From: Amoebophrya sp. A120
Taxonomy: Eukaryota > Protista > Dinoflagellata
Length of the DNA: 64,000 nucleotides
Assembly (NCBI GenBank): GCA_905178155.1
Contig: CAJINV010000022.1
Coordinates: 703,073 to 767,072, forward strand
Direction: 5' to 3'
Shown here piece by piece: positions 16,612 through 57,897 of this stretch. The position numbers and the translations under genes were made by a program. Below the pieces are notes generated by a model. It saw only the letters and a program-made list of their open reading frames with translations. It searched no databases and was not told where the DNA came from. Positions within the stretch are counted from its first letter, which is position 1; the number at the start of each line of letters is the position of its first letter.

Positions 16612-16782
16612 GAAAATGAACGAGTAGGTGGCAAGAGCTGCCTCAGCATCGATTTGTTCTTGTCACTGACTGTATGGCATAGATATCTTTGCATACAACT
16701 CGATCCTTTTCCTTTTCGTAAAGCCTGATATACTGTCTGACTCTGGTAAAACTGCTCGCAGTGGTCTGTAAAGTACAAATCG

Positions 16783-33745: not shown

Positions 33746-33749
33746 TGGC

Positions 33750-34230: not shown

Positions 34231-34239
34231 AAAGGTCCG

Positions 34240-35165
34240 TTCTTCTGGATGGTGCCTACAAGGCTCGAAACCGTTGCCCGGATTTTTTTGGGAATCAGTA
34301 TGACAGGCATGGACGAAACCCGGGAGGGGCTTGGGTTTTTCTATTGGGGGCAGCCCCGGCGCGTGGGTTTCCGTGCTTCTGCTTCTGGGTGGTGCCTACA
34401 AGGCTGGCAACGGTTGCGCGGATTCTTTGGGGCATCAGCATGACAAGCATGGACGAAATCCGGGAGGGGCTTGGATATTTCTACCCGGGGCAGCCCCGCC
34501 CGATGGGCCTCCGTCCTTCTGGGTGGTGCCTACAAGGCTGGAAACGGTCTCCCGGATGTTTTTGGGAATCAGCACGATAGGCACGGACGAAATCCGGGAG
34601 GGGCTCGGGCTTTTCTACTCGGGGCAGCCCCGCCCGTTGGGCCCCCGTGCTTCTGGGCGGTGCCTACAAGGCTGGAAACGGTTGCCCGGATTTTTTTGGG
34701 AATCAGCATGACAAGCATGGACGAAATCGGGGAGGGGCTTGGATTTTTCTACTCGGGGCAGCCCCGCCCGGTGGGCTTCCGTGCTTATGGGTGGCGCCTG
34801 CAAGCCTGTAAACGGTTGCGCGGATTTTTTTGGGCGCCAGCGTGGCCAGCAGGGATGAAATTCGGGGGGGGCTTGGGCTTTTTTATTCGGGGCAGCCCCG
34901 CCCGGTGGGCTTCCGTGCTTCTGGGTGGAGCCCATAAGGCCGGAAACGGTTGCCAGGATTTTTTTGGGAATCAGCATGGCAAGCATGGATAAGATTCGGG
35001 GGGGCGCGGGTTGTTCTACTCGGGGCAGCCCCGCCCGGTTGGCTTCCGTGCTTCTGGGTGCGTGGTGCCTACAAGGCTGGAAGCGGTTGCCCGGATTTTT
35101 TTGGGAATCAGCACGACAGGCATGGGAGAAGTCCGGGAGGGGCGTGGATTTTTCTGCTCGGGGGG
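34240..35165. repeat. ~134-bp tandem repeat, 7 diverged copies
   Basis: ggtgcctacaaggc-like anchors at 34251, 34391, 34525, 34659, 34793, 34927, 35064. Confidence 0.92.
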
Positions 35166-35204
35166 TGCCGCGCATGCAAAAGCGGCGCCGGTTTTGTTGC
35201 CAAA

Positions 35205-35475
35205 TCTGGCGCCAGCGGTGCGAGTTTTGGTGCCAGTTCTGGTGCCAGTTTTGGTGCCCAATCTGGCGCCAGTTTTGGGGCCAGTTCTGGTACCAGCGGG
35301 GCCACTTCTGGTGCAAAATCTGGTAGCAGTTCTGGTGCCAGCGGTGCCAGTTTTGGTATCAGATCTGGTATTAGTTCTGGTGCCAGTTCTGGTGCCAGTT
35401 CTGGTACCAGCGGCACCAAATCTGGTGCCAGTTCTGGTGCCAGCGGTGCCAAATCTGGTACCAGCTCTGGTACCT
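35205..35475. repeat. 9/12-bp minisatellite (GGTGCCAGTTCT)
   Basis: Direct tandem repetition with variants. Confidence 0.9.
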
Positions 35476-35795: not shown

Positions 35796-38700
35796 ATGGA
35801 GGGCGTCGAATCGGGTCTGGAAACAGAGGTTGCAAAACCTTCACTCAGTAGCTCTGCCTCTTCTTCATCGTCCGCGGCAAGCCTCACCTCGCTCGCCAAA
35901 CACAAGCAGAATATCAATTACCGGCCGGCACTTCAAGCTGCTTCCGCATCTTCTTCCGCATCAATCAGAAAAACCAGCAGTGCCAGGTGGAATCCTGGAG
36001 TTGACATGCTTCCGCCAATACCGGAGGAAGAAGAAGAGGACCAAGAATGCTTTGCAGGCCGGATGGACCAAAACTTCCTCCGGGAGAAAGCCCACGGAGG
36101 GGAAGCGCAGGACGTGGAGATGGGGGGCTGCGAAGTGGAAGTGGATGAGGATGGCCAGGACGTTGAGCAGAACATCTCGGCCCGCACCGACGGCGCGGAA
36201 AACAAGGGGCCATCGAAGGCCGGTGGTAGTGATGGCAACACAGCAAAAACGGACCCCGAAGCCATCCCGAAGCGCAAGCGGATATTTCAAGGGTGGAAGA
36301 GACTAGGGATGAGTTGCGGCGTTCGCAGCTCCAGGTATTTCCCGTCCGACAAGGACCACCGGCACGAGCTTTTGTTGCAGGCGGTCGATTATGCATATGC
36401 AAATATGCCCTCTGGGTCTGGAAGAGGAAGGATACAAGTTTGTCATGCGTGTCTCACGTGGACGTGGCATCCATGTGAAATCTGTAATGCGTGAGCAGGA
36501 GTAATAAAGTCTCCTTTCTGTCATGCAAAAACGAAGCTTCCCGCACAGAAACCTGTCAGGCGTGGCTGCGCATTGCTCCCGCCCACTATTTACAAACTAG
36601 CATAAAAAAGTTTCCAGGCCCAGACGAATCTGTAATGTATATCGAGGACACCAAAAAGAACTACCGTGCGCCTGAGGAAGGCGAACAGATTACGGTCTTG
36701 GAAATTTCCGACGATGGCCCTGGCTGGGGTCTTTTCCCGGTTCGCTTTGTACAGCTGTGCGACGTGATGGTCCGCTTGGTGGCGCATTTCGTTTTCGGCT
36801 GCAAGTTCGCGGCCAATGATAGTCGACGAAGTCCTGTCGAGATGCTCTGGGCCGCTCTGTGGGCGCCGATTAACGGCGTGGCGCTTGGGGAGGTTAAGTT
36901 TTCCGACCTTCCGCCTCACGCCAACGAAACCCTTTGCCAGAAGAAAACCTCGATCGCCATGCACCAGCTAGTCGAGTATCAAATGCAAATGTGTCTGGAT
37001 CTGGAAAAGTGCCAGGTTTGTCATGCATATTTTCGGGGACCCATGATGTCTGTGTGCCGTCGCAGATTCTGCGAGGGCTTTCTGATGCTCGTGCCGCATG
37101 AGAAATTCTCTTTCAGCGTAGCAGAAAATGGACTTCTTTTGCTGTTCATGCAGTGCAGTTTTTTATGTAGAGTGCAAAACTAGTGTCACAAATTGCAATC
37201 TTCCACCAGACCCAGACATTTATTTGCATTGGATATCGTTATCGAGGTCATGAATACAATGTGCGGGGGGCAGGTCAAGTGGAGGGCGACGGGCTACGGG
37301 GCAAACGGGAAAACAGTCGAGGGGAGCATTTCCATGGACCCAATTCCACACCCCACGCTTTCCATTCCTGGAGCTTTATCTGGTGCAAATATGTCTGCGT
37401 CCGGAAGGATCCGAACTTGTCATGCTAAATCTGGAATGCGCAAAAATGCAAATCTGTCTTGCGCGACCCGCAAAATTTCCTCACGTCTTGCAAAGCACGG
37501 ACAAGTAGGTTTGTCATGCGGAGTATTAGCCTTGAAGAGCATGCTCTTGCGAAATGTGTGATGCCTCTGGCCTCACTTACGGCCACGTACCTTGTGTGAT
37601 GCACGAGATGCATGACAAACTACGCTCTCGTCCAGACCCAGACATATTTGCAGTCGATAAACTTCCAACGGAGACGATATTGTTGCGGCGGATTCCCCTT
37701 CCAGCCGATCAGCGAAGCGAAGGCCGACGTCCCTGCGGAGGAGCAGCGCGCCGGGGCGGAGGATTCAGGGGCGCAGGCGCCGGGCCCCGGCGAGGATAAA
37801 GCGACGAAGCAGGACGGGCCCATCACCGAGGCTGAAATCGTTCAGTTCCTGACCAAGGCAAAAACGCGTGACCCAAATTCGCGCGTGTTCCGGCTGGTCA
37901 AGAAGGCCCTCACGCACGGCACGAGCATACCGGGCTGCTTCGTGTTGATGTCGTGCGACAACCCCGAATGTTGTCCCCAGGGGCCGCCGCAGCGAAAGCC
38001 GAAGCTGCAGCACCCGCCCAACCTCGACGGCAAAATTGAGGCGGTGATGTTGCAGGAACCTGATGACCTTCTCCTCAATGATGACGAGGATTGGTTTTGC
38101 GAGCCGGCAAATGCTATCAAGTGCAAATATGTCTGGGCCTGGAAAAACTTGCGATGCTGTATTTGGATTCCAAAGAAATCTGTATTGCGTGAGAAGCAAA
38201 GGGAGCGTGACTTTTGCTACGCGGACGGGGCATTTTTTATGCGGAATAGGCATCAAGAAATCGATCCTCAAAAACTCTGTGGCGCTCCACACAGACGTCA
38301 TGGCTCATGCAGAACGTGCATGACAAGTCTCAGAATCTCCAAGGCCATGACATATTTGCATTTGATAAACGACGAGGACATCGACCTGGGCGACGAGATC
38401 GGCACCGAAGGCGTCGATATGCCGAAGCGCGCCGATACCGTGGAAAGCTTTGTGCGGTGGTATCAAGTGTAAAAATGTCTGGGTCTGGAAACTTGTAATG
38501 CTAAAAGTGAATGATGGACCTACTGCAATACGCAGCTATGCATAACAAATTTTTTGGCTGCCATGCCTTACGTATTCCGCATGGCAAACTGCGTTTTTGC
38601 ATGACAGGTAAGAGGGCCTTTCCGTGCCTATGCAACACAGATTCTCGACTCATGCCAGACAAGCATGACAAACTTGCATTCTTTCAGACCCAGACACTTT

Positions 38701-39329: not shown

Positions 39330-41455
39330 TAGTACACTGCCACAACAAGTGGATAGAAAAAGCTTGCCGGGATAAATGTGCTCGGCCAAGGCCACAACTG
39401 CGACAGTCTTCTACTAGTGTTCACCTGAGCAATGAATCACGCCTCATCAAGTGGTTCCTTTTATTTGGACGCTTCGTCTTCTTAGCCCTTTTTCTTTGTC
39501 CACTGTGCGTGGTCGCAAATCTTATCGTCTCCGGATCACCTCAAGACACTAAACCGGGTGGCGTTGTCCTTGTGTGGATCCCTCGTCGTTTTGGTTTTCT
39601 TTTCGTGTCCGTAGCCTGCAAGCACAAAGCGTGATGCGTTCTGGCTAGATTAGTAGTTGAGGCTCGTTATTGAAATTGTCGTGCTGTGAGTCTAGTGCAA
39701 CTGCAAGTGCAACGCCGATCTCGGCTGCAAACATGCAGCGGAATTTTAACCCGCCGCTGCGAGGGCGATCGGTCGGCGCAGCACTACCGCCCAACAATGC
39801 GCCGCGGCCGACTGGAGCAGTGATGATATGGCCTGGTCACGGGTCGCGCCCTCATCTTTTGCATAAAAATCCGCTCTGCATCTTCAAGGAATTCGCATGA
39901 TTTTTGCCATGCAACGGTGCAGAGGCGGGAAAAATAAAAATCGAGGTCCGGCGAAATAGAGCCTTAGCACGCCAAAGGCTACAAGAGGATGAGTTTTCAG
40001 TCTCAGAAATCTATATTCTTGCTCGCTCGAGCTTCGAGAAGCGTCTATGCTCATGCAGACCTAAATGTCATGACGTCACAGGAGAGTTTGGGTGAATAAA
40101 AAACACTGCAGTGCAAAAGCATGAAAAGGTTGAGGGCGCGACCGCTGAGCAGCTCATAAGCACAACAACACCGTGTAGATGCACACCAGATTGAGCAGGG
40201 GGTGCACATGCAGCACACCAGAGACGCGAATATTAGAGCGGGGCATGAACACGTCAGGCATCCGCGACAGCTGGGCGCGAAGTAGTGAATAAAAAAAGCA
40301 CTTGGGCCTATTATCGTAGGGCGCATAAGCAGCTTACGGCGAGCTTTTAGTTTTATCCGCGCGTGCAGCGGCGCTAAACGGGCGCAGAAGGAGGGTAGAG
40401 GCAAAGAAGGCGCCAGCCACGTACTTAGTGGGTCCGGGGAGAGGGTGCAGAGGGTCCGAGGGGGTCCACAGTATAGCTGGGCCCTCTGTGGGACCATCTG
40501 TCGCGACCCTCTCCGGGAAGCTCTATGTGGTTTCTCGGAGGACCCTCCCATGACTTCTCCTGCCCCCCCCCGGCCCTCTTTCGGATCCTCTCCGGGCCCT
40601 GTCCCGGACCGTCTCCCAGACCCCCTCCTGGAGCCCCTCCCGGAGCGGCGCCTGTCTGCTGGCGGGCGGTCTTGCTTCAACGGGGGTCGGCAGTTCTGAA
40701 AAAAATTCAACTTCGGGTCAATTTGGCTGCCCAAAGTGGCCGCGCCGTTCTGCGCCCCGCGGAGGGGGTGGGTGCGGCGCAGTGCCTTACAGTGGGCGGC
40801 CGCTTGAGGGTGCCGCGCTCAACTTCCAACAACGCCCGCGCACGCGCGGGCAACAGGGGCGGGGACGTTTCTTTAAAAGGAACACGGCCAAACCTGCGTC
40901 CACATTCTGGTGGGCCCCCCCCAAGAAGCGACACCATGGCCCTTGCTCTTCTTGGGTGCGCATTCTTGTTCGTGCATCTGCAAAAAGCAGCCTCCTTCCT
41001 TTGGCGTGATGGCGGGGCCGCACTACAGGGCACCCTTCCCTTCGCGGCACCAGGCCGGCGGCCAAGCTAATTGTCCGGGGCCCCCTTTCATGGAGAAGAA
41101 GGCCGGTGCGGCGGCTGTGCATCTGCGCGCGCCATCCGGGCGAAGGGCGCAGCAAAGAAGAATTTCTTCTTTTGCTGCGCCGGGGATTCGACGTAGCGAG
41201 TCGGTCGGTGGTGCCGCTTTCCCCACCGGAATCCTCCACCAAGCAGCCCACCCCCCGGCGGCCGCCGCCGGGGGGTGGCTGGTGGAGTAAAATACCGTGG
41301 CGCAGAAGTTACTATCGAACACCGAACAGACTGTGGCTTCGGAGCTGACACTACGAAGCCACGCCACTGGTTCGTGGTCGAAGTGCAGTTTTTTTGTTCG
41401 CTATAATCGCCTCCAGCAGATAAATCGCCGAAACGGGTATGACAACGTCCAGACA

Positions 41456-43452
41456 ATGGCCGACTTAAACGCCAGGCCGGTACCCCGCAACATACAGCCC
41501 CAAGAGATCCCGCGTAAGCGTAACGATCGTGTTATGCAATGCAAATATGTCCGGGTCTGGAACGGTGCAACTTGTCATGCTGCAGTTGAATCTGGCAAAA
41601 ATCTGTGTTGCGTGCGCGGCTAATTTTACATCCACCTCGCCCCGCGCAAAGTTCCCATTTCTCATGCGGAATAGGCATTAACCAGCTTCTGCGCACTCTG
41701 TGATGCTTCTGGATGCATTCCAGAGGACCATCTTGGTCTCTGTGTTGCACGAGATGCAAGACAAATTTTGCGCTCTCCAAACGAACCCAGACATACTTGC
41801 ACTGGATGCAGGATCATGATCGACAGCAACTACACCAGGCCTACCACGACGACGACGACCAGATCTATCAAATGCAAATATGACAGGTCTGGAGGAATGA
41901 AAGCTTGTCATGCTAAGGCTCAATCGCGGAAAAATCTGTGTTGCACGAACGCCGGGAGTTGCCCGGTTCTTGTTGTCATGTGGAATAGACATGTCACAGG
42001 CGTCGCTAACTATGTGATGCTTTTCTGTGCATGCCAGGCTGCGGGTGCGTGTGTGGTCCGACGTGAGATGCATGAGAAATCTCGCATCCTTCCAGACCCA
42101 GACATATTTGCAATGCATAACTTCGAAGGCCGAGGCCGGGCAATATCAAAGTGAAAAATCCCCCCCTCCCCATTTTCGCAAGGAAGCTTCTGATGCTGGA
42201 TTTGCGTACACGAATAAGCTCTGCCTTGGTTCCACAATCGGGCGACATCCTCTGAACTTTTCTTCTTGCAGGACGCGACAATCAATTATTTGTGGTCACA
42301 AATCAGCATCACAAATTTCCCTTTCGAGTATGGGCAGGGGGCCCCTTCTCACAGAATAGCCGCGAGAACAGCAACTAGCAGTCGCAGAACAGCAACGTCG
42401 AGCGCGAAAGCAATCGTGTCCCATGCGCATCCGGCTGATGATCGTATCAAATGCAAATATGTCTGGGCCTGCAAGAAAGCAATACTTGTCATGCAGAATT
42501 TCCATGCCTCCCGCGGTCTGGAATGCAGCACCTAGCATGGCAGGTTCTGCGAGGTCTCTAAACCCTATCATGCCTATCCTGCACTTTCTCTCATTATGAG
42601 ATGGTCTCAACGATTATGCTTTTAAAAATTCAAAAAAATCTTTATTAAGAAAGCAAATAGCAACAATTAGCCGCCGAAGCCGCCGCTGTTTTCGCGCCGT
42701 TTGTGACGTCGTTTGCCGCCGTCTTCACAAGCCGTCGTATGAGGTTGTTAAATAAGTAGTTCTAAATGAGATCCCAATTTGAACTAGCTAGTTTAGGTAA
42801 TAGACATTCTCATTGCCATGAGCAGCTTGAACCCACTCAGCTAAGGTGTTTGGCCGGCCAGATCGACACGGCTTCCAAGGTTGACGGGCCCGAACTTCGT
42901 CTGGGGCCCCGTCCGGGGCTCCGAGCAACATTCCGGTGGAGCATCCAAGGTAGTCGGCAGCTTCGGATCGCAGGAGAGGAGAGAGCTGGCGGCACCTCAA
43001 TGCAAATCTTCAAATAGCTACTTTCTAAGATGCATATTAGCTAGTTCAAATTGGGATCTCAACATTTAGAACTACTTATTTATCACATTCATAATCTGCC
43101 AAGTGGCGACGCGCGGAAGCTGTGGACAACGGAGCACCAAAACGGAGTCGATTCAGGATGGATATGTGCCTATTTGCTGTCTTAAAAAAGATTTTTTTGA
43201 ATTATTGAAATCATAATCGTTGAGACCATCTCATACTCATGTTGGTTGAAAAAAGCACAAGAACCTTCGGTGATTGCGCAAGACACATTTTTTGTGATCC
43301 ACAAGACGCATGATCACAGGTTCCATCCTTCCGGACCCAGACATATTTGCAATGTATACGTCGACGAACTGCAGCCAAGTGCAGAAGAGCGGAGGATCGA
43401 AGCAGAACTGCAGAAACTGTACGACGAGCGTCGCCAGGCAGTATCTTACTGA
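41456..43452 (+). CDS. Small hypothetical protein with four introners, one containing a nested element
   Basis: MADLNARPVP...DHDRQQLHQAYHDDDDQ...EQQLAVAEQQRR...DELQPSAEERRIEAELQKLYDERRQAVSY* joined by the element plus 5 nt rule. Confidence 0.6.
41533..41808. mobile_element. Degenerate introner family A
   Basis: TSD decayed (CGTGT/CAGGA); frame restored. Confidence 0.75.
41866..42119. mobile_element. Introner family A
   Basis: TSD AGATC/ACTTC; frame restored. Confidence 0.85.
42144..42358. mobile_element. Short introner family E
   Basis: E-type left TIR, decayed right TIR; frame restored. Confidence 0.75.
42445..43358. mobile_element. Introner family A interrupted by a family G element
   Basis: A-type ends; TSD GATCG/CGTCG; frame restored. 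Confidence 0.85.
42595..43235. mobile_element. Family G foldback-like element, 641 bp, nested in A
   Basis: Perfect 24-bp TIR tatgagatggtctcaacgattatg extending imperfectly to ~65 bp; second internal IR; TSD CTCAT/CTCAT. Confidence 0.93.
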
Positions 43453-43504
43453 AAACGGTCCCTACCGCTTCGTCGCTGCGATAAGAGTGTCGGAGCCCAA
43501 AACG

Positions 43505-43807
43505 TATGGATTGCAAATATGTAGTAGTCCGGGTCTTGAAGTGGAGAATTTGTAATGCTGGTCTTCCATTGCCGCAAAAACAGCACCGTTGGGTTTACCC
43601 CTTTGCATCGGCAGAGCATGATGCGCACCCCCCCTAAAACAGCTAGCCTAGTTTACGTAGGTAAATTGCCAATTATAGTCCGGCTCCCGGAGGTCAGGGC
43701 CATCTACGTACCTTTCATGATGCTTGGCTGTATCTATCCGGAAGTGGCTGTACACGTCGGCATCGCAACTTTCCAGACCCAGGCAGCTGCATTACTTCAA
43801 TGCGATA
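43505..43807. mobile_element. Degenerate family A element, 3' UTR or intergenic
   Basis: TSD AAACG/AAACG. Confidence 0.75.
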
Positions 43808-45763
43808 AAACGCCTCATCGTGAGGCGCGAGGAGTGAATCACTTCTTGGCAACTTTTGACTGCGAAGACCGAGATTGCAGAAAAACACGTACTCGGCGTT
43901 ATCCTCGTGCGAAAAGAAAGAAATTTGTCTCAATTTTGCATCTACCGAAACACATACGTTTGGAAATTGGTTGTTTTCTGCCACTTCGTTGTGAGGCCAC
44001 GACATTCGCTGCTAGGCACTGACTACAACACCAGGTCGTATGGACAATTTTCAGTGTGATCCAAATATTCGTACAAAAAAGCACACCCATCTAAGAAAAA
44101 AATAAATTTGTCACGCGTCAACAACGAGAAAAGCAATTCCCTTTCACACAGCACAACGCAGTTCGCAATTCGTTTTCGGCACCCGAGGCCCACCAAGAGG
44201 GATTGTCATGCATTTTCGGTTACGTTTTTTCCGGCAGTACATCCCCCCGCAACACAAATTTGTTTTCATTCTGGTTTGGGTACATTTTTCCGTAGAATAC
44301 CGACACAGAAGCGCTGGCACAAAGGAAGAAAGATGCGGTGGCGCATACCGAAAAAGCGTCGGCGCATACCGAAAAAGCGTTGGATTCTTTGAAGCAGTAT
44401 CCTAAGGAAAAACGTCCCCAACTACACACAAAACGTGGCCACGTAGGATATAAATGCATTACATACTTCTCTCCCGCCTTCATCGTCGTTTCGTGTTCCT
44501 TTGATTTTGAAAAGTTTGAAGCTTTTCTGCGCCAGTTTACAAAAATTTTCATTTGCATTTGGTTATTCCCAGTACACAATCAAAGCACTCCAAAAAAACC
44601 AAAAAGATGCTATGCTGGGTATTTTGCTATACAAGTCTCCAAATTTCGCGGCCACCTCCGTCACCACCACAAAAAAACGACCATAGAAATGCCACGCAGG
44701 CCCCCAGACTTCGCGCGCCACGCAGGACAGACTTGGCTTCGCAGGGTAGTCGTGCTCAGCAGGTGCAGCACTACAAAAATTGCCCACCTGGCCTGCTGAT
44801 CCTGGTTCCAGCATGACAAGTTCCAAACCACCAATACCAAGTATAGTCGCCGTGGCGGGGCTAGTGAGGTCGGTGGCGCTTTTCCCACCGCCCTGGCTGC
44901 GGCCCGATAGTGAGCCTGCTTTTTTTGGGCTCGCTCGTCGAACCGCTGTAAGCAACGTTACGCCGCACGGAATTGCGGCCACGTGAAAAGCGTCACATTT
45001 TGGCACATTTGCAAAATGCCTCTCGGCAAGCCAGCCCCGGGGCTTTTCTGCCGATCCGGGCGCCGCGGGGGGCGGCTAAAAAGCGAAGAAAAGCCGGCCA
45101 CATTGCATTTCTTTTTTTTTGCGCCTGCGCCTTTCGCAAAGCTTCCGCCGCTTAGAAACCGCCGAAAAGACGGCCACCTTCGCGGCCGCCCAAAATGCTC
45201 TGAGTTCGAGGGCGTGCCAGGCGGCTTCGTTGTTTTGGCTTTGGGCGCGTTTTTTTTGGGCGCCCTTTTGGGCACCCGAAATCGCCAGAACACCACGGGG
45301 CGGGTGGCTAAGAAGGGCCCCCCTCCTGCTGGCTCCCCTGCGTCGTTTTATCAAGCGGCGACCGATATAGTCCGCCGGCAATTCGTTGCCAGAAAAGCGA
45401 AACAGGCTGGCGCGCTTTGGTTCTTTTCACGCAAAAAAACTCGCTACAGACTTGAAAACCGCCGGCCGTTTTTGGCGGTTATTGTCAAGAAAACTGCCAG
45501 GCGAAGGCGTTCTGCGGCCTTGCTACATATAGGCTAGCCCTCCTGATGTTGCGCACGGGAAGCGTTGTTCCTGTGCCAGTGATGACAAGCGTAGCACAGG
45601 GACGTTTTTCCACAGGATCCACAGCAAGACAACATCCTGGCATCGACTAGGGAAATAGATGTCGAAATAGACAAGAAGACTATTATGCAAATGTGACTGT
45701 CAAGACAGTAGCATCGCTTACACACCACATCATGCAGAGTCATTTTTAGAGGACAGCTGTGTT

Positions 45764-48330
45764 GTGATCTTTGCAGAAGCAGAAACACCAGTGTTTCAAC
45801 AGGCGTACTCGGTGCTACAAGTTGGATTTCTCTGCTTGTCATGCATAAGGAAGGAACACGACAGGGAAGTGCAGGTGCGCGAAGCAAAACGTGATAAAAT
45901 TCTGCAGGACAAGGAGAAGGAAATCAACATGATGATACACGACCTGCAACTATCCATTGCAAATGCGTCTGGGTCTGGTACGTGCAAACTTGTCCTGCTG
46001 AGTCCGACTTTGCATAAATAGCAAATGTATACCCGGTTACTGCGACGCAAAGAGCGAAGTTCCCATCGGGAGTAGGCATTAAGAAGATCTTGCCGCGCAA
46101 TCTGTAATGCTTCTGGGTGCATTCCAGACGATTGTTCGTTTTTGTGCTCCGCGACGGGATGCATGACAAACCTGGCATCCTTTCAAGCCCAGATCGATAC
46201 TTGCAATGCATAAAAACAACAGCGCGACACGTTAATGTACGACTCGTCCATCGCACCGACTATGGCGACGCAAACTATTTCAGCTCAAATCTAATATTTC
46301 AAATTTCGTTTCACAAACTCAAGTAGGTATTTCCAAACAATTGCTATTTCAGGCAGTTTCCAAACAATAGCTTATTTCATATAGACGTAGTTAACACTGG
46401 GGTAGCGAACTTTGGAACAGTTTTGAATTGAAATAGTTTGCGTCGCCATACTATCAAATGTAAAAGTGTCTGGGTCTGGAAGATTAAAAACTTGTCATGC
46501 TAAATCTGAATGATGCAAAAATCTGTGTTGCGTGAGTGCCCAAAGCTGTCCGCCTTTGACCAAGTTGAGAGGGAGTTTCTCATGCAGGAAAGGCATGATA
46601 GAGACCTCAAAGAATCTGTCATGCTGGGTCTCGCATTCCACACCTCATGCGTCATGGAAAACCTGCATCACAAATCTTGCATTCTTCCAGACAAAGACAT
46701 TTTTACAGTTGATACCTACCGACAGCCAGAGGCGTACTCGGCTACGTGTACATATCGCGAGGAAAAAAACCCCCTCCCCACATGAAAGGGAGGCTTCTGA
46801 TGCTGGATTTGCGTACACAAATCAGACTTGTCGTGCAGAAGGTGCTGGGCGGCAGAAGTCAGATCGTGTCGAAAGCGCATGACAGACTCACTGTGGCATG
46901 CGCCACATGGATCCCAGTAACCTATACGCAAGACAAACGAGATTTTGGACCACAAATCAGCATCACAAATTTCCACTTTGACATTGGGAGGGGGGATTTA
47001 TTTTCTTCTCGATATTACAACGAGGAAGTTTTCATGCCGGAATCCTCGCCATGGACGCCACATCTCCTTCAGTTTTTCGCACCCTGTTGAAGAACGTGCC
47101 CATCCCTAGACTGTCATGCGGGTTTGCAAAAATGACAGGAACATTTGTGATGCGCATTCCAATGACAGACATGATTTTTCGTCGAGTTTTGGAATTTGTA
47201 ATGCTGTAGACAGGTACTAAAAAGCTGAAGGATTCGGATATGCGGTTGTCCTTCTTCTCGCTAGCAGCACGCAGCATCTTCACAATGCAGAGAAACACTT
47301 GCTAGGCGTGACTCCCAAAAGTTCTTGGTTTGTTCTTGCAACATCTTCGTCCTAAATCTGGGCAGGTGGGGACGTTTTTACATAGGATATTTCGGTTCAC
47401 AACAAAAGGTCGTGCGTCCTGCGTTTCAAAACCTGGACATATCCAAGAAAAAAACTGTGTTAGTGGAGGTGTCTTCGGGTGACAGCATGAGAAATTTATT
47501 GTTCTGCATGACAGAAAAATCTGTCACGCACAGCTAGGAAGTGAAAACACGTATGAAAAGAGGGCATTGTGGATGGCCAGCATGACAAGCGTAACTGTAG
47601 TATGGTGTGCTTTGCATTACAGACTTCAGCTTACACATCTTTTTTCTCGCATAGGACACACAAACGATCCACTATTACGAAGACGAACCGGTAATCGTGA
47701 AGGCGCCTACCTCGTATCCTGAATAAAAACGTCTCTGCCCCATATTCAAGTCGGAAAACCAGCTAGACAAGTCAAGCAGCTTTGGTTGTTTCGCATGACA
47801 AGTTTGTTCGCGTAGTGTACTCCTGTTTAGCTTGCTCAGCAGCAATTTCACAGACCTAGCATGTCATGCTGATTGAAGTATCACAAACTCCAAAACACGA
47901 CAAAAAATGCTTCGCATGGGGCTCCGCATGAGGAACTTTTCTGGCATGCGGATTTGCATGACAACTCTGGGGTGGGGACGTTTTTACTCAGAATAGCGAA
48001 CTGACGGAGCGTATCAGAGAGGAAAAGAAAGAACGAGGATACTTTGTCACCCCTGCTGTGTTATCAAATGCAAAAATGTCTGGGTCTGGAAGATTCCGAG
48101 ACGTGTCATGCAGATTTTCCATGATCCATGTTGTCTGGAATGCAGGGCCTAGCATGACAGATTCTGTGAGATCCCTATCATGCCTATCCTGCATGAGAAA
48201 CTTCCTCTCGACTAGTTCAAAAGTGCGCAACTTTTGGCAATCATGCAACACAGTTTTTTGCTTGATTCAGATTTAGCATGACAAGTAGCATTCTTCCAGA
48301 CCCAGACATTTTTGCATTTGATATGTGTAG
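45764..48330 (+). CDS. Hypothetical multi-exon protein; start and 47090-47654 unresolved
   Basis: In-frame joins ...IHDLQ/QQRDTLMYDSSIAP/TARGVLGYVY/NEEVF... and ...VIVKAPT/LTERIREEKKERGYFVTPAV*. Confidence 0.5.
45951..46212. mobile_element. Introner family A
   Basis: TSD GCAAC/AAAAC; frame restored. Confidence 0.82.
46261..46450. mobile_element. Introner family H
   Basis: Perfect 22-bp TIR tatggcgacgcaaactatttca; TSD CCGAC whose right copy is split by the next element. Confidence 0.9.
46452..46714. mobile_element. Introner family A inserted in the TSD of H
   Basis: TSD CATAC/CCTAC; near reverse complement of the 4646 copy. Confidence 0.93.
46753..47014. mobile_element. Introner family E
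   Basis: TSD GTACA/TTACA; frame restored. Confidence 0.88.
47715..47995. mobile_element. Introner family D
   Basis: Similar throughout to 6282-6559; TSD unrecognisable (CCTCG/GCGAA); frame restored. Confidence 0.85.
48062..48323. mobile_element. Introner family A
   Basis: TSD TGTGT/TGTGT. Confidence 0.95.
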
Positions 48331-48523
48331 GAAGTTGGCAATTTTTCGTGCATACAACTCGTGTGCACAACGAAAAGGGGGCGCCAGAGTGCGCCATGGG
48401 TTCCAGAGTGCGAACGCTGTTGCCCGCATTTCGTGTCATGCAAAAGTTTCAGGAGTCGCGCATCAGTAGCTGGCACGAAACAAACAATATCATGTAAGTG
48501 GCAAACAAACAATTTAGATTTAG

Positions 48524-51500
48524 ATGCGGTATTTTGAAGATTATCCGGCCTCTCTTTTCCGGATGATAAACGAAAAGGAATACATCCAGAATTCGGGCAT
48601 CAACATCACCAAGGAACTGCTGCATGACGTAAACTATCTACGCATTGTAAATATGTCTGGGCCTGGAAGAGTTGCAATTTGTGATGCAGCAAACTCTGGA
48701 ACCTACAAACATGTGTGTTGCATGAGCAGCAAATAAAGCTGCTTTCATTTCTTGCAACGCATAAAAAAAAAGTAACGAGCTTCTATAGTATGTGGAACAG
48801 GCGTCTAGAGGCGTGCACAAAAAATGTAGGGCTTTTGCGAGCGTTAGGTACCATTGGAGTGCTCCTCCAAAAGAACCGTAGCGAACAACTGCATTCTTCC
48901 AGACCCAGACATGTTTGCAGTGTATAGTATCCTACCCTATGAAAAATTCTACCCACCCCAGAGCTGTGACAGATGATCTTGCCCATGCGCAGAAAAAGTG
49001 TCATGCGGTTCTCCACGGAGGGCACCATTTTGTACTGGTGCTCCACGTCATCACTTTGCCATAGTTTGATCAGAGTAGCGAAACTTTATTTGTCATGCGG
49101 CTGCAAGAAGATTGCAAACTTGTGAAGATACCGAAGTGGGTTAGTTTTTCTGCAGGATACGTTCGATAACAGATAAGGGCGAAATCAGCAGAAGTTCTAC
49201 GACCGTTCCTCCAAGCACCATTCCAATGGACGTCGACGAAATGCCGACGTCGGTGCTCGGCACTCCAACGTACGCGAGCGGGGGTGGCAGTTCTCCTGAC
49301 AACATAGGTACTTCTTCGATTTTGCTGCTTTTCGTGTCGTGGTTTCCGTCTATTTAAAGGTTGTCTTAGTAGAATACCTTCGTGTAAAACAGTGCAATTT
49401 ATGAAAGTGAAAAAAGCACCCTCCCCCTTTCGAAAGAGCATCACGAGGAAATTTGTGTTGCGTATTTGTGTAGGCAAAAGCCTCTGTATTGCATACTTGA
49501 GAAGCAAGCAGAGCGAAACGGCGCACTGAGCAGGCCATCTGTGATGCGTTTTAGTCTACAGCAGCAGCGTGTATCATGCAGAAAACCTACACTTTTAGAG
49601 GCCTAAACAGACGTAATGCGCCTCTGCTTTGTTCTTACGAAAAAAGAGCCGATGTGTGACCACAAATCTGCATCACAGATTTCCGCTTTGATATGGGGAG
49701 GGGGGATTTTTCTCTTTGATACAACTGTCAAAATCAGGTGAAACACGACAGCAAGGCGGGTACGCGTTGGAAATAAGTATGTCTACAGGGTCTGGAAACT
49801 TGTGATGCGAGTTAGTGAATATGAAGCTCTCTGTAATGCACCGCCTAGTACAAAGACAGGCTTTTTCATCGCGCTGTGTATGTGTTGCGTGATCTGCATG
49901 AGAAACTGCGTTTTTGCATGACAGTCAAGAGGAACTTTTTGTAGCCACGTAACACAGAGGCCAGAGTCATGCCAGACATCCATGACAAAGCTAAAGATCT
50001 TCCCGACCCAGACATATTTGCATTTGATAACCCTGGCCACATACCAACCGCGGAGGAATTGAAGATTGTCCGCATGCTATGCCGTGCAAAAGTATCGCAC
50101 TCATGCTTGTCTTCGCTTTGTAGCATGCTGGAAGAAACTTTTTCTATACCGGGATAAGCATTACAGATTTCATTTTTCTTTCTGCAGAAACTCAAAAAAA
50201 AAAAATGTAATGCTTTTATAAGGTAGAGCGTGTCTTGCGCTTTTGCACTGCACATGTGCGCCGTCTGATCGACACTATCACGTGCAACTACCTCTGGTTC
50301 TGGAACAGTACTCGTGTTTGCCATGCCAATTTTTTCCTTTGCCCCACGGATTCTGATTCATTGTCGAATGCATTATGGCCGAGGATTACAAACTTGCAAA
50401 AAACCACGGGCTCCGAATGCCATTGCAAATTTGCGAAAACATAGGCGAAGTGGAACTGTGCGCCAAAAAAATGTGCAGCTGCCTTCAATACACATGAAGA
50501 ATCTTCCACCTACAGGGAGCATCGCAAATGCACTTTTCCAGACCCAGACATATTCCCGATGAATACTTAATAGATTTTGGACTTTCAAGATCAATGGGCT
50601 TGGCAAATCCAAGGGGTTCTTCGTCGTGCTCAAGGGCATCCCGGGGCTACACCGTATCGATTACGAAACCAAGGACCGCGAACGGTTGTCCCTCTACGGG
50701 TGCTATCCACTGCAAATATGTCTGGGTCTGGAAGAATGCAAGGCTGTCATGCTTGTTTTGCCTGAGCTTCTACATCTCCTTAACCCTCTGACGCATAAGG
50801 AGAAAAAGAGCCTTAGCTGTCATGCAAAAACGCAACTTGCAATGCAGAAAACGCAACGCGTAGGAACTCAGGAAGGTGTCATGCTTGGCTCCGTAGTGTA
50901 GCGCGCCTACAACCATTGCCAATTGAGACATGTTTGCGTTGCAGAGATGCACGTTTAGAAAGCAATGGAGCAAACAGTTGCACCAGCAGCGGCAGGAACA
51001 GAGGAAACGGAATGCAAAGATCAACAAGAACAACAGCAGCGGAACAATAACTACAAATAGCCCACCAGCTGACGGGTGGGTAGATGGGTGGGATGAAGGC
51101 CAATCCGTAGGATACTGTATGTACAGCAGGTGCAAGCGAAATAGTCCGGTAAGCGAGATGGAACAGCGGGACTTGACGAACCACATCTGCGACAAGAAGT
51201 GGGTTCCGGTCAAGGATTGCGAGTACGAGTATATGGACTCGCTCTACTTATTACAGTGAAAAATGCCCCCCACCCCCGAAGTTGTAATAATTTGTGATGC
51301 GAAGTTTCCAAATGAACGGCCTTTGTCATGCATGAAAGGAGTGTGATTCTTTGTGATGCAGAGTCTAGGCGTATATAGCATTGATTGCATGACGCTCTTG
51401 CTGGGATCTTTTGCAATACAAATTTTCGCTATTCACGATTGGAATAAATCTGTGATGCTGATAGATGCAAGAGGGGGAGTGTATCACTCTGATAGGTTTG

Positions 51501-53090
51501 CAATACAAATGCCCCCAAGTTCGGGGGTGGGGGCATTTTTCATTGTAGTACCCCTATCTCGTGCAGCAGCCGGACCCGAAGTATGACTTCGTCACTAAGC
51601 GCTGAGAAATCGTACTCCCCCCCCATAGTGTATACAAGCCAAGCATCTCGCAAGGCCACGCATGAGGAATCAATCTAGCTGAAAGTCCCATGGCACCACT
51701 TCGATTTCAGCATTACAAATTTGATAGAGTTTCGACAAGCCATATACAAAATGCGTGTGATGAAAAGCCGACTGAGAAACCTCATGCACATGGCAGATTT
51801 GCATGACAAACCTGGAGTGGGTACGTTTTTACAAATGATAAGCGTATCCGTCAACTGTCCTCTCGAAGAAAATATCAAATGTAAAAATGTCTGGGTCTGG
51901 AAGAATACAAGATTTGCGATGCAGGTTTTCCATGATCCTTGAGGTCTGGAATGCGAAACCCAGCATGACAGATTCATGGAGGTCTCTATCATGCCTTTCC
52001 TGCATGAGAAACTCCCTCTCAACTTGGTCAAAAGCAGACAGCTTTTGGCACCCACGCAACACAGATTTTTGCATCATTCAGACCAGCCATGCCCCGGCTC
52101 ACGCCGGGTGGAGCGGCTGTTGTGGTGGGGCAGGACGATTTGCGGATCGGGCCACAGTGCCAAAGCTTTGCGCCCGGCGTGATAGGTCGAAGGAAGTACT
52201 GGCGCCGGTTTGCGCCATTTCAACCCGCTAGGCCTCCTGCGCGCTTCCCGCGCATTGTTCAGGCGCTATGCGCAGGCAGCAGTTGCAGCGAAGCTTGGGG
52301 GCGAAGCGAAGCCGCCTCGGCGTAGGTGCCTGTCGAGGCAGAACGGGGGCCGCGATGCCCTTTTGTGATCACACGCGAGAGGGTGGCCAGAGAGGGTGGC
52401 GCGACAGGGTGGCGCGAGAGGGTGCGTGAGAGGTTGGCGCGAGAGGGCGCGAGCCTACGTGACGAAAAAGGCCCAAAAAATCGACCCTGTGCCGGGCGGA
52501 TTCGGGTTTTCTTAACCGCCTCGCAGACCCTCTTTTTCACCTCTGCCGAGGGGCGCGCCTAATAGTCCGGCTATACTCGCCGGTAGAGGTCTACAGAGGT
52601 GGCCGAGAGGTGGCCCAGAGGGTGCGCGAGAGGTTCGCCCTTATTCGCGCAACCTCTCGGCACCTCTGTCCCCCTCTCGCTTACCCTCTCCCGACCCTCT
52701 CGGCCACCTCCGTCCCCCTTAGGCGCGGTTGTAGGGCGACCGGTTCGGCTGGCTATACTCGCGCCACCTCTCGGCCACCCTCCCGAATGACCTCCCGCGC
52801 CACCTCTCCACCTCTGCGGACCTCTTTTTGATCTCTTTTCACCTCTTTTTGACCTCTCGGCCACCTCTCTTCTATCCTCTGTAGACCTCTTTTTTCGCAT
52901 GAATATAATAGATAGTATTTTGACATGACAAGTTCTAATCTTCCAGACCCAGACATTTTTACATTCGATAGAAAAACGATACGGACAAATTTCGCGAGCG
53001 GAATACGACGCGGCGAAAAAACACGACGGAAACGGTGCGGCGAGTCTCGACGAGTGGTTCGTGTGCGATCATCTGTGCCCTTTATCGTAG
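48524..53090 (+). CDS. Hypothetical protein with ten introners and one GT-AG intron (49308-49359)
   Basis: Continuous frame from MRYFEDYPAS to ...DEWFVCDHLCPLS* after removing every element plus 5 nt. Confidence 0.7.
48639..48926. mobile_element. Introner family A (TAC start)
   Basis: TSD CTATC/GTATC. Confidence 0.85.
48933..49159. mobile_element. Degenerate introner family D
   Basis: taccctatgaaaaattctacccaccccagag / tttttctgcaggata; frame restored. Confidence 0.65.
49400..49721. mobile_element. Introner family E
   Basis: TSD CAATT/CAACT; frame restored. Confidence 0.9.
49761..50029. mobile_element. Introner family A, decayed left end
   Basis: TSD lost (GCGGG/ACCCT); frame restored. Confidence 0.75.
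50078..50255. mobile_element. Degenerate introner family C
   Basis: TSD CATGC/TGTGC; frame restored. Confidence 0.7.
50276..50565. mobile_element. Degenerate introner family A
   Basis: TSD lost (GACAC/CTTAA); frame restored. Confidence 0.7.
50704..50945. mobile_element. Introner family A, decayed right end
   Basis: TSD GGTGC/GATGC; frame restored. Confidence 0.78.
51249..51550. mobile_element. Introner, E-like variant
   Basis: TIR tattacagtgaaaaatgccccccaccccgaa / ttcgggggtgggggcatttttcattgtagta; TSD CTACT/CCCCT; frame restored. Confidence 0.82.
51596..51840. mobile_element. Degenerate introner family D
   Basis: D-type right end, decayed left end; TSD lost; frame restored. Confidence 0.6.
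51873..52970. mobile_element. Introner family A split by an ~835-bp GC-rich insertion
   Basis: The two halves match the 4646 copy; TSD GAAAA/GAAAA; frame restored. Confidence 0.92.
52083..52917. other. GC-rich, hairpin-rich insertion of unknown type
   Basis: Interrupts a family A copy; internal IR gaggtggccgagagg/cctctcggccacctc; ggctatactcgc twice; no TIR or TSD seen. Confidence 0.7.
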
Positions 53091-53209
53091 AAAAAAGAAC
53101 ACCACTCCAGTACCCAGTGACAGGACCATGATTTGCCATGCTATAGTTAGGGATCACAAGAAAAAAGAGAACATGTCGTCTGCCCAGCAGCAGACATTCT
53201 ACGCTTTCC

Positions 53210-55401
53210 ATGGCAACAAAATGTCTTGGCATTGCCGAGTTTTTTGACGACACACTTGTAGCGAAACGAAAGGCAGTTGCAGGCCTTTTCTTCTGTGATT
53301 GGGTCTACTTTTTTCTGCGATACCGTGGAAGCGACTCGAAGGCGCACGTGTGGCGGAAGTACACCGGCTCGTCTCCACCAGTTGACGGACCTTATCCTGC
53401 TGAAAAGTACAATCACACCCAAAGAAAAAAGTTTCTGTTGCCAGTATTTTCAGTTCGCTCAAAAGCAACGCTGTATTTCGGTTGACAGATACTTAGGAGA
53501 AAACAAACTCCGAAAAAGTTTGTCTTGCACGATATGCAATGCACAGGTTTAGTAGTGGTGAACATAACTGCAACCAAAGCTAATCCTTGTATTTGTGTAT
53601 GAGCGGTGTGCAGCTTTTCGCTGTGATGAACCAGCTTGGCTTTACAACTACATCTGGGACAACGACGGCTACCTTGTCCAGCCACAGAACATGCCTGGAG
53701 CAGCACCGCAGACCCTTATCAGAAGGAAAAATCCCGCCTCCCCATATCGAAAAGAAAATTTGTGATGCTGCTTTGTGACCACGAATCAGCTTTGTCTTGC
53801 GTACAAGGCGATCGGCGGCCATGTGGCGCATTATGCAGCGAGTCTGTCATGCGGTTTCGCCTATGTCAGACTTGTTTCGCATGCTCAGCTGCTAGCCGGA
53901 TGTGTACCCGGGGGGGCTTAGAATATGCTGACAAGCTCTTGCCGCAATACAGAGCTCATTGGTGTACACAAATCCAGCATCAACGCAAATTGTCTTCCAA
54001 ATATGGGGTGGGGGCTTTTTTCACTTGGATAACGCTGCAGCAAATTTTTCGGCATCCGGAAAACCCCGAGACCGAGAGCCTGTTCTTCCTGGGAATAAAT
54101 AACAAGAGGTTCGAGAAAGTTGCCCCAATGTCGACGGAACAGAAATACTATATCGACGCGATGGCGCGGGATTATCCGGCGGCTGATTTCTACTGGATTA
54201 TGCATTGCAATATGTCTGGGTCTGGGAACTTGCAATGCTGGGATGTGAATACGATTGGTGAGCTCTTTGTAATGCACACGCACAGCCAAGTATGACGAGA
54301 AATATAATTGGGCTTTCCGCACGACAAACTGCGTTTTTGCATGACAGGCGCCAGGATCTCTTCTTGGACACGCATCACTAACTCTGCAGTCAGGGCAGAC
54401 AAGCATGACAAACGTTGCCGGTTTCCAGACCCAGACACATGTGCCCTGGATATGTCTGGTAGTGGGTCATGGAGGGTTTGGGGACTCGTTTCTGGTGGCT
54501 TTCGCCCGGAATTATCAAACTGAAAAGTACAGCACCGCCAGTTTTCATCTTTGCCGCAGTTTGTATACACCACTAGAGCAGAAGTCCGCTTCGATGCGGC
54601 ATCCATCGTCACAAATTTTTGCGCCAGTTTTTTTCCCCATCTGCAGTTGCAGAGCTCATTTTGCGTTTCGCGACAGCAAAAACGCATTTTCTGCATGCCC
54701 ACCGCGGAATGCGGCCCAGGTGTTTACTTTTCTGCTTGATATCGATGCGCCGACGACGGAGTGCGCGACCGCGATCGCACCGATAAAAGGCGGGTCTGTT
54801 GAGTATAAGAACTTTGATGTTTTGTTCTTATTCTACCCATGTCAAGCACTGAAAAAGCAAAATTACGTGTTCGCACTTCATTGCAGGTTTTGTTGCCGCG
54901 ATCTATTTTTTTTATTTCTCTGATCATGAATACATCACTACAGGTACCAGCGAGAATTTGAAGACCTGGCCCGCAAAGGATACCGTACGTGCAAAATGTC
55001 TTCGCTTATGCAAGACAAATGTGTCTGGGTCTAGAAGACTGCAACGTGTCATGCTGATGCTATGTTGCATGCACGGCCGCAAGCGCTATTCACTCTCTGC
55101 CGCGCAAAGGGCGAGTTTTTCACGTGGAATAGGTATCAAAGAGCTGTTGCACAAATCGAGAATGTGATGCAGCTTCCGGTTGCATTTCGTCTAGATCATT
55201 TTACATTTGTGTGTTGCACCAGGTGCATGACAAATCTAAGCAACCTCCCAAATCCAGACACATTTGCAGGGCATATCGGAAGATCTGGATATGGTGAAAA
55301 ACCTTATCGATAACAAGGTTTGGTTTCCGATCCCGGACGCCAAGTATCAACGTGGAAGGTTCTCCCAGTCTTACAATTTCGAAGTGCGTGCCTTGCCATG
55401 A
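53210..55401 (+). CDS. Hypothetical protein with five introners and one GT-AG intron (54794-54943)
   Basis: Continuous frame from MATKCLGIAEFF to ...YNFEVRALP*. Confidence 0.68.
53393..53628. mobile_element. Old introner family I
   Basis: tatcctgctgaaaagtaca / gcagcttttcgctgtgatg; TSD GACCT/AACCA; frame restored. Confidence 0.65.
53717..54031. mobile_element. Introner family E
   Basis: TSD ACCCT/ACGCT; frame restored. Confidence 0.9.
54199..54452. mobile_element. Introner family A
   Basis: TSD TGGAT/TGTCT; frame restored. Confidence 0.82.
54513..54741. mobile_element. Old introner family I
   Basis: tatcaaactgaaaagta / tacttttctgcttgata; frame restored. Confidence 0.72.
55007..55275. mobile_element. 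Introner family A
   Basis: TSD TCGCT/TCGGA; frame restored. Confidence 0.8.
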
Positions 55402-56492
55402 ACGAACGCGGCGTGGAATAAAAAAATAAAGTGTTTTCACACGACAACCACAAAAGCTATTTCGAAGTAAGACCCAGGGATACTTTCCACGATGATACAA
55501 AATTGCAAGCCGCTGGGAGAAAGACCCGAAGCGTTTTTTTCACGGTGTCGGGAGGTGATAGCGAAAAATAGTATCATGTGAAAAAAAAGCTGCTTCAACA
55601 TCATGCGCAATCGTAGAATTTTGCACGGCGTTTTGTCCTTAGCGACAAGGACAACCCACAACAGCATCGCTTTGATGCAACAAAGAGCCGGCTTTTTCAT
55701 TAGTGGAAGAAGGATTGAAATTCTACTTTCTTGCAGCCATTCCACGAAACAAACAAGCTCCATGTTTGTTCAAGCATCTGCATTTGAGAAACGGAAAGAC
55801 GTATCTGCCAACGGTAAACCAGTTTGTTGCACCAATGCACCCCGCATTTTCATCGTGAAGCAGATGGTTTTTTTCACTTTGATAAACCCCAAATGATCTT
55901 TCGGATGATTATGGGACTATCCCACAGAAAAGTACACTCAGGCATTATTTGGAAAAATTTGTCGGCAGCCTTTAGCTTGACCTGACAAATCATCCCCTTC
56001 CCATCAAAAAAGAGATGACGTGACGTTTCGATCACCGAAAACAGAGAAAGCGCATGACAAGTTTGTAGATATGCGAATTCGAATATCGAAAGCCTGTACT
56101 TTTCGGTGTGATACGTGTTGCCCACCCCCAACGGCCTCACAGCAACCGTCTGCGAAAAACTTATCAAATAGAAGTGCCCATCTACTTCTGAATACAACAA
56201 GGCATTTTCTGTTTTGTGGCTTTACCATAGTCACAAAACTTCAGCAATTTTGCGTCATGTGAAAGCATACGCTCTTTGTACTGCGGATAAGCACTTACGA
56301 AAGATATCTGACAAATCTGTCGCGCCTTTCGGCCAAAAAGCGCTGCTCCCTTGTGACACTAAGCACAACTTGAACTTCTGCAGCGAGAGATTTTGACCAA
56401 TTGCATGAAATAGATGTGCCTTTCTCTTTGATACTGGAGTTTTTTTGTCCGAGGGGGGGCGACAGGTGGAGGTACGAGAAGGATCTCCAAAC

Positions 56493-56762
56493 TATGCATT
56501 GCAAATATGTCTGGATCTGGAAAGGATGGGATTTGTCATACTAATTTTTTCATGCTAGTACAAGAAATACAAAAGCCTGTATTGCATGAGCATCAAATAG
56601 CGCAAACCCGAAGGGGGTATTTGTCATGCAGGATAGAATGAGCAAGCCTTGGCGAGCGGCGTGAAGACGCTAGAGCACGCATTACGGGCAACGCGGTTCA
56701 TGTACAATTACGCATGACAAACTTCCCCAATATTCCAGATCCAGACCTATTTGCTATGGATA
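56493..56762. mobile_element. Family A element
   Basis: TSD CAAAC/CCAAC. Confidence 0.85.
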
Positions 56763-57026
56763 CCAACTACAGTGAAGCACCCACAGTAGAGGCGGATCGA
56801 TCGTAACCTTCACATCAGTACCAACAGGAAAATAATACACACAGTAATTGTAGCAACAAATCTTCAACATCAACATCTTCCCTTTCAACCATCGAATCTA
56901 CTTCATTTCAAGCGTCTTCTGTGCCAACATGACGAGTTGCGGAATAAGTGAACGAAAAGTAAACTTTGTAATGCCCATCATCATCCGTTCGCGGTTCCGG
57001 GTTCCGGAGAAGCAGTAAGCCGCAAC

Positions 57027-57292
57027 TATCAAATGCAAAAATATCTGGGTCTGGAAGGATGCGAACTTGTGATGCGTGTCGCGGATCAACATACAAAAAT
57101 CTGTGTTGCAGGACTTGCAGAAGGTTCCCATTTCTAGCCATGCCGAGGGGGCATTTCTCATGCAAAATAGGCATCACCAAGGGGCTGCAGAACCTGTGAT
57201 GCTAGGCCCTGCATTCCAGACTTGGCGGAGCTTGGAAAAACTGCATGACAAATCTCAGAATCTTCCAGACCTAGACATTTTTACATTTGATA
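57027..57292. mobile_element. Family A element
   Basis: TSD GCAAC/GCAAC. Confidence 0.94.
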
Positions 57293-57624
57293 GCAACAGC
57301 TCGTGTACAACACGGTCTGAACAAGTTCGTCGGGCACAAGCGTCAAACACAATAGGAGTGCACCGAGCGGCGTGATACCGCTGTCCAAACCAGATGTGGT
57401 GAAGACGTGGTAAGATGATTATATATTCTTTTTTGTTTCAAGCGAAACAGTTCTCATGCACGCAATGGCATGGATACTTTTACTTCACCGAAATCGCATG
57501 GCATGAATAATTTACGAAGGATTTGTTCTAACAGAACGAAAAATAAAAATCATCAGGTTCTTAGGTGGCGCGTCGTCGTCGATTCGTCGCTAGTCATCTG
57601 GAGGTCAAGCAGCTCCGCCGTCCA

Positions 57625-57897
57625 TATGCATTGCAAAAATGTCTGGGCCGGAAAGAGGTCGAGTTTGCCATGCTAAGTCGGAGCGGTGACGCAAATGTGC
57701 AGGACGATGTTATTTCTCATGAAGGAGGATGGCATTTCTCATGCAAGATGGGTGTTACGAAGCCCTCGCAGAAGCTGTGAAATAAACGTTACACCTCCCA
57801 TTCCAGACCTCGTGGGCCAGAGCTGTGCGGAACCTGCATGACAAACATTGCATCCTTACGACTTCAGATGACTGCTCAGACATATCTGCAATGCATA
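57625..57897. mobile_element. Family A element
   Basis: TSD GTCCA/GTCCA. Confidence 0.85.

Follow-up and report, generated by a model that had tools for sequence, protein, structure and literature searches.

A fixed cutting register, measured from element ends, for transposon-like introns of Amoebophrya sp. A120

How a cell finds the borders of introns that lack GT-AG ends is the question raised by a 64,000-nucleotide (nt) stretch of DNA from the dinoflagellate Amoebophrya sp. A120 (contig CAJINV010000022.1, positions 703,073–767,072, forward strand), hereafter the window. The window is crowded with elements, mostly 150–350 nt long, which start with TAT, end with ATA and in many cases lie between 5-nt direct repeats. 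They interrupt genes such as the host gene at 39733–56789 (forward strand), which has 37 junctions and encodes a deposited protein of 905 amino acids (aa; P0001). A first-pass annotation had proposed that such elements are removed together with 5 nt even where the direct repeats have diverged, and that the junctions are measured from the terminal inverted repeat (TIR) ends rather than found by repeat homology. Both proposals held. The intron consists of one base, the element and four further bases (N + element + NNNN), the 5' cut falling 1 base before the element and the 3' cut 4 bases after it, and this register is constant despite diverged flanks. The register is given here as the bases of the spliced joint that come from the left flank and from the right flank (4+1: four left, one right).

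The junctions were read from deposited proteins and from RNA. Queries with three exons gave a single protein apiece, each bearing the name Amoebophrya sp. A120 and identical at 100%: P0001, P0002 (728 aa) and P0003 (1411 aa, Pfam PF12807; gene at 4099–12709, with 19 mapped junctions, all element-bounded). As the protein is anchored on both sides of each gap, the removed length is exact and not merely fixed modulo 3. Element ends were set by the protein together with a matrix of element ends, and the element at 45684–45847 was placed by hand; one P0002 junction near 28617–29247 and the first 156 aa of P0003 lay outside the mapping. RNA evidence came from spliced contigs of four RNA-like runs that share one sample label in one study; their RNA status is the guess of the tool, and contigs would mask minor or rare junctions. 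The four runs behave as mRNA, because their contigs also skip a canonical GT-AG intron (49308–49737, forward strand, containing the element 49400–49721), which fixes the strand. RNA joints were examined in 47330–52000, and the junctions at 25291 and 41533 were judged from deposited proteins rather than from nucleotide-level RNA. From two raw-read RNA runs (X9 and X10), 208 and 2 reads aligned in part, all of them to element sequence, and an Rfam scan returned 0 matches.

The three proteins yielded 72 junctions, comprising 65 bounded by elements, six GT-AG introns without TIR ends and one that was unresolved. Removal of the element plus 5 nt accounts for 60 of the 65. These 60 simple junctions exclude the six GT-AG introns, four compound pairs, the junction at 40283 and that at 26950 (TIR not found, gene model doubtful). 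Four odd lengths (+4, +4, +6 and +9) each resolve into two elements losing +5 apiece. The +6 case predicted a second element 4 nt past the first, which was then found (43442–44061 and 44066–44299; the nested pair is removed as 43441–44304, 864 nt or twice the element plus 5). Similarly, the element 46452–46714 is inserted in the 3' end of 46261–46450 (46260–46722, 463 nt), and the elements 48639–48926 and 48933–49159 form two introns within 48638–49163 around an inferred 1-nt exon at 48931, the RNA contigs skipping 525 nt; both lengths are again twice the element plus 5. All three pairs lie on the forward strand. The remaining junction, at 40283, loses +5 or +7 depending on the chosen end.

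Several observations on pairs and unusual ends stand beside these counts. Paired elements 6 nt apart occur at 10465–10894 and 48638–49163, each leaving an inferred 1-nt exon, and at 43442 and 46261 the gap between the first element and the second is 4 nt and 1 nt, respectively; insertion beside an existing element end may be favoured. In the intron at 40282–41409, the best TIR partner for the 5' end (TAG...) stops at 41403, whereas in the deposited model the cut lies 4 nt past an ATA whose last base is 41405; should RNA confirm that model, the 3' cut would track the ATA motif and not the base of the stem. The element at 47079–47393, with a perfect TTTCG duplication, begins with CAC in place of TAT, yet its removal also follows +5. 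The elements 57027–57292 and 57625–57897 and a GT-AG intron (57410–57556) are skipped in the untranslated 3' portion of the P0001 transcript, where there is no frame to restore. At 35796–37950, when +5 is applied to the elements at 36390, 36977 and 37377, translation meets a stop after 415 codons whichever register is used. Beyond 37660 a different frame stays open, and it would be restored by a hypothetical hidden GT-AG intron that ends near 37705. These three elements were not counted, as the deposited protein P0004 begins later. At 26294–26838 a single nested element intron is taken out in the deposited model; judged by eye, an in-frame alternative that combines the inner element with a GT-AG intron starting at 26645 may also be feasible.

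Flanks that no longer match reveal where the cuts fall, as the first-pass annotation had expected, and the mRNA takes left bases 1–4 and right base 5. The same joints appeared in all four RNA-like runs across 47330–52000. Among the nine simple RNA junctions, all on the forward strand, four are exactly 4+1: the intron 47714–47999 (G, the element 47715–47995 and GCGA; flanks CCTCG/GCGAA; joint 47713 to 48000), which is followed by an 11-nt exon (48000–48010) in the RNA contigs; 48011–48572 (element 48012–48568 with 48062–48323 nested in it; joint 48010 to 48573); 49760–50033 (element 49761–50029; GCGGG/ACCCT; joint 49759 to 50034); and 51595–51844 (element 51596–51840, which starts TAA; GTCAC/AGCGT; joint 51594 to 51845). 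The other five are compatible with register 4. The intron 50275–50569 (element 50276–50565; GACAC/CTTAA) allows registers 3–4 in the RNA contigs, and four further joints allow wider ranges that include 4: 50077–50258 (element 50078–50254, ending ACA; 2–5), 50703–50949 (element 50704–50945, ending AGA; 2–5), 51248–51554 (element 51249–51550; 3–5) and 51872–52974 (element 51873–52970), where a perfect GAAAA duplication makes the register uninformative. If each joint drew a register from 0 to 5 at random, the probability that all nine would fit register 4 is about 10^-4.2.

The proteins extend this result beyond the region covered by RNA. All 60 simple junctions admit register 4, compared with 24, 28, 40, 46 and 47 for registers 0, 1, 2, 3 and 5, respectively. 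Applied across the whole gene, register 4 rebuilds P0001 with 0 mismatches (with two compound introns fixed and 40283 ended at 41405), whereas registers 3 and 5 give 11 mismatches each, with stops. Furthermore, the predicted exon lengths equal the contig coordinates in four of four intervals across 49200–56800; a fifth interval is off by 147 nt, which is the GT-AG intron at 57410–57556. The protein fixes register 4 exactly at the intron 25290–25523 of the P0002 gene (element 25291–25519; AATCT/AGCAC; forward strand) and allows 3–4 at 53082–53326 (element 53083–53322; CCCTT/CCGTG; forward strand), where register 5 gives a stop. P0004 adds two +5 junctions, one of which (38115) excludes register 5. 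The first-pass annotation had named six diverged sites (25291, 41533, 47715, 49761, 50276 and 51596), and removal of the element plus 5 nt was exact at all of them, by RNA at four and by P0001 and P0002 at 41533 and 25291. At 41533, however, the element end required correction to 41808 (CGTGT/CAGGA, 2/5 matching), a separate element following at 41866–42119; the resulting intron (41532–41812, forward strand, registers 2–4 from the protein) may equally be read as GT-AG at 41531–41811, which gives the same mRNA.

New GT/GC-AG sites had been named as a finding that would undo the rule. An in-frame pair of this kind lies near 24 of the 60 simple junctions and yields the same mRNA only at 41533. 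At 47715 a GT...AG alternative (47714–47996, GT to TAG, 3 nt shorter and in-frame) is not the assembled form, and at 50704 an alternative of the same length (50700–50946) is excluded by RNA. The register is also constant across families. Opposite-orientation relatives (22040/23280; 23280/23684; and, from weaker alignments, 49761 and 54199 against 50704 and 21355) do not show the mirror register 1. Thus, the 1/4 asymmetry follows the direction of transcription. As 1 and 4 add up to the length of the duplication (5 nt), a newly inserted element is removed without a scar.

The elements fit the introner class already described from this organism, with an inverted repeat of TAT, seven looser bases and an A-run, and direct repeats of 3–5 nt (Farhat et al., 2021; PMC7789003). 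In the window, the 5' arm starts with T in 69, A in 70 and T in 60 of 70 elements, with TAT intact in 60 of 70, and A occupies arm positions 11–13 in 61–64 of 70. At the 3' end, A, T and A are found in 69/70, 68/70 and 63/70. The inverted repeats, the constant length of the target-site duplication (TSD) and the short size place them among non-autonomous TIR DNA transposons (MITE-like, for miniature inverted-repeat transposable element), and repeated families show related interiors in both orientations. Three long elements of 1.1–1.2 kb (40283–41405, 44398–45619 and 51873–52970) have GC-rich, low-complexity interiors. The 5-nt flanks match at 5/5 positions in 18 of 62 elements, at 4/5 in 10 and at two or fewer in 18; the direct repeats were present at birth and have decayed in old copies. 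Each flank position is mismatched in 17–25 of 62 elements, which indicates that the end motifs are kept as the flanks decay.

The first-pass annotation had further suggested staggered, hairpin-guided cutting, and here the result is divided. Folding of the 59 elements under 600 nt (single-sequence predictions without proteins) gave end-to-end pairing in 55 of 59 at 37°C and 53 at 19°C. Only 42 of the 59, however, are predicted to pair the terminal triplet in register, and three elements whose removal is verified by RNA (49761, 50276 and 51596) have no predicted pairing of the terminal triplet, 51596 lacking a predicted end-to-end stem altogether. An excess of G-U wobble pairs was not seen among the mismatches (59 G-U-keeping vs 68 A-C). 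Changes of the third base number 10 at the 5' end against one at the 3' end, and those of the first base one against 7 (Fisher p 0.001 for the contrast between ends, post hoc and with families that are not independent). The two ends vary at different positions, a pattern more in line with strand-specific reading of a motif than with a symmetric cutter. The terminal motif seems to act as the ruler, assisted by the stem.

Which machinery reads this motif is less certain. A divergent U2-type spliceosome probably makes the cuts, recognising the end motifs rather than GT and AG and accepting any first and last base. The 5' site would be read as N-U-A, canonical at +2/+3 and free at +1; the A at −7 may be the branch point, or the point from which the 3' cut is measured; a TIR stem, if it forms, would do no more than bring the ends together; and nested elements would be removed inner first, an order implied by the 46261/46452 pair. 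A relaxed spliceosome is favoured because of U and A at +2/+3, the end pairs tabulated for the genome, the A at −7 and the loss of G at −4. In the window, intron position +2 is T in 61 of 62 (the sole exception being the CAC element at 47079) and +3 is A in 62 of 62, as in the local donors, given that all seven GT-AG introns found begin GTA. An A stands at −7 in 61 of 62, preceded by a U-run at −18 to −15. Relative to the exon copy, a G at intron position −4, which makes UAG, has been lost 16 times and gained twice (p 0.0013, uncorrected and the best of 20 tests). In Table S4 of PMC7789003, the nine commonest end pairs of A120 all start N-T and the nine of strain A25 all start TT, and the A25 repeat begins TTA; both strains therefore put U and A at +2 and +3. 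This table is genome-wide support that the authors' text, in the sections available, does not draw out. The same source reports that A120 encodes nearly all spliceosomal proteins together with the U2, U4, U5 and U6 RNAs.

A number of points weigh against the spliceosome. U1 snRNA is reported as not detected in A120 (PMC7789003). The GT/GC-AG ends of U2-type introns are rare, with a GT start in 10 of 62 and an AG end in 2 of 62, and no drift was seen towards G at +1 (11/62) or a terminal AG (2/62). Canonical GT-AG pairs at 47715 and 50704 are passed over, although the same gene has GT-AG introns. The A at −7 is predicted to be base-paired in most elements, lacks a wider branch consensus and is present in only 5 of 7 canonical introns; it is a candidate branch point from sequence, and neither a lariat, a branch site nor dependence on the spliceosome was seen. 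Conservation of TAT and ATA may be partly inherited from transposition, the element-end matrix itself favours TAT ends, and members of one family are not independent counts. Finally, the RNA runs carry one sample label in one study, their RNA status is guessed, contigs mask infrequent junctions, and related RNA data may underlie the deposited gene models.

Some of these points turn in favour of a protein endonuclease and ligase, of a tRNA-splicing-like or euglenid-like kind, which would recognise the paired ends on the RNA and cut 1 nt beyond the 5' arm and 4 nt beyond the 3' arm, which corresponds to the staggered, hairpin-guided model of the first-pass annotation. This explanation is possible but rather unlikely. 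It would accord with end-to-end pairing predicted in 55 of 59 elements and in 17 of the 18 with old flanks, with free terminal bases, with the canonical GT-AG options ignored at 47715 and 50704, and with the undetected U1 (PMC7789003), and it would cope with 1-nt exons and nested pairs. There is also a precedent in euglenid introns, which are excised as circles by a mechanism described as unknown (PMC11282704). However, the same register is used where a terminal stem is not predicted (49761, 50276 and 51596), changes that keep G-U pairing are not favoured, pair-breaking 5' TAC is common while pair-keeping 3' GTA is rare, and the offsets coincide with the local GTA donor. In introns of tRNA-type endonucleases, an exon-intron helix lies between two bulges at the cuts. 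Here, the final four bases of the intron repeat the exon end directly instead of complementing it, and eight folds gave no consistent bulge-helix-bulge. In its widest form, in which most introns of the A120 nuclear genome would be removed by a non-spliceosomal endonuclease-ligase at −1/+4 and a whole transposon class would have been domesticated as scarless introns, the proposal is likewise doubtful.

A hybrid is considerably less probable. An end-binding protein, or the stem, would replace U1 and U2AF and feed both ends to an ordinary catalytic spliceosome, with the branch elsewhere in the element and the A at −7 merely an inherited transposon base. U1 proteins are reported as present and U1 snRNA as not found (PMC7789003), stems are usual, and an A-run at +12 to +15 and a U-run at −18 to −15 are conserved at the two ends. 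No end-binding protein was identified here, however, and the hybrid leaves unexplained why the A at −7 varies less than the base that partners it at the 5' end.

Hairpins with direct repeats are a classic setting of reverse transcriptase (RT) template switching, and 18 of the 62 elements have perfect 5-nt repeats. An origin of the joints in template switching or microhomology, or in DNA excision like that of ciliate internal eliminated sequences, is nevertheless highly improbable: the first-pass annotation was right to set homology aside, because four joints (47715, 48012, 49761 and 51596) share no letters across the cut; every element junction on one contig is skipped together with the GT-AG intron, giving a 905-aa frame; opposite-orientation relatives lack a mirror register; and contigs of a further run, X5, continue unbroken through elements at 48897–49684, 50005–50731, 52943–53752 and 54317–56434, so that removal is not at the DNA level, provided that X5 (whose kind is not on record) is DNA.

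The A120 introns themselves are known, and the fixed register is an addition. Non-canonical introns make up more than 60% of those in A120, and the published description gave them no clear signature and left the mechanism open (PMC7789003). That study covers the same organism and class and reports RNA-supported non-GT-AG introns in many families; removal from RNA with non-GT-AG ends was also found here. Its section 10 and Figure 3 legend call the splice sites variable relative to the hairpin, with the border unknown, and its Figure S23 legend places sites 1–5 nt from the repeats; in contrast, the register here holds at 1+4 whatever the state of the direct repeat. The comparison was made by legends, and Figures 3, S19 and S23 could show more. 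A fixed register is stated nowhere in the literature searched, in which few subscription papers were covered. The introner and intron papers compared were PMC7789003, PMC11282704, PMC12130899, PMC12005148 and PMC11453091.

Several systems share features with A120. Euglenid nonconventional introns likewise have a transposon-like TIR stem, TSD-like repeats, non-canonical ends and a stem placed asymmetrically in the intron (PMC11282704). Their CAG/CTG stem at +4 to +6 and −8 to −6 and their pyrimidine/purine junctions are absent from A120, which instead has TA at +2/+3, ATA at −7 to −5 and no base preference at the cuts. Introns of Fritillaria borealis are also MITE-derived, with TIR and TSD, and are reportedly removed by an adapted spliceosome (cited via PMC11282704); their ends are mostly AG-AC or AG-AT, whereas the first and last bases are free in A120. 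The introners of Micromonas, Aureococcus and Polarella are DNA transposons that are scarless when the splice offsets sum to the TSD length, but they use GT/GC-AG sites from the element or TSD, which the A120 elements do not. Fungal stwintrons are nested introns that require ordered removal (PMC12403724); they are canonical U2 introns nested in a donor, whereas in A120 an element lies inside the 3' end of another.

Elsewhere in the window, a 69-nt tandem repeat of three 23-nt subunits occupies 1–3121 (45 copies, 97% matches), and arrays at 32186–35474 comprise a 222-nt unit (75-nt subunits, partly self-complementary) repeated seven times, a 134-nt unit repeated seven times and an array of a 12-nt unit. 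Uninterrupted frames of 263 and 538 codons (16750–17541 and 18438–20054) are element-free, unlike the adjoining genes.

The rule N + TAT...ATA + NNNN reduces the apparent diversity of intron ends in A120 to one signal and permits exact re-annotation of its non-canonical introns. It also accounts for the harmless spread of a transposon with a 5-nt duplication in coding DNA. Furthermore, the mechanism becomes directly testable: the candidates are one branch base and two donor bases, and lariat can be set against circle. If removal is spliceosomal, A120 would possess a spliceosome that needs neither terminal base of the intron, which would bear on the requirements of the catalytic core.

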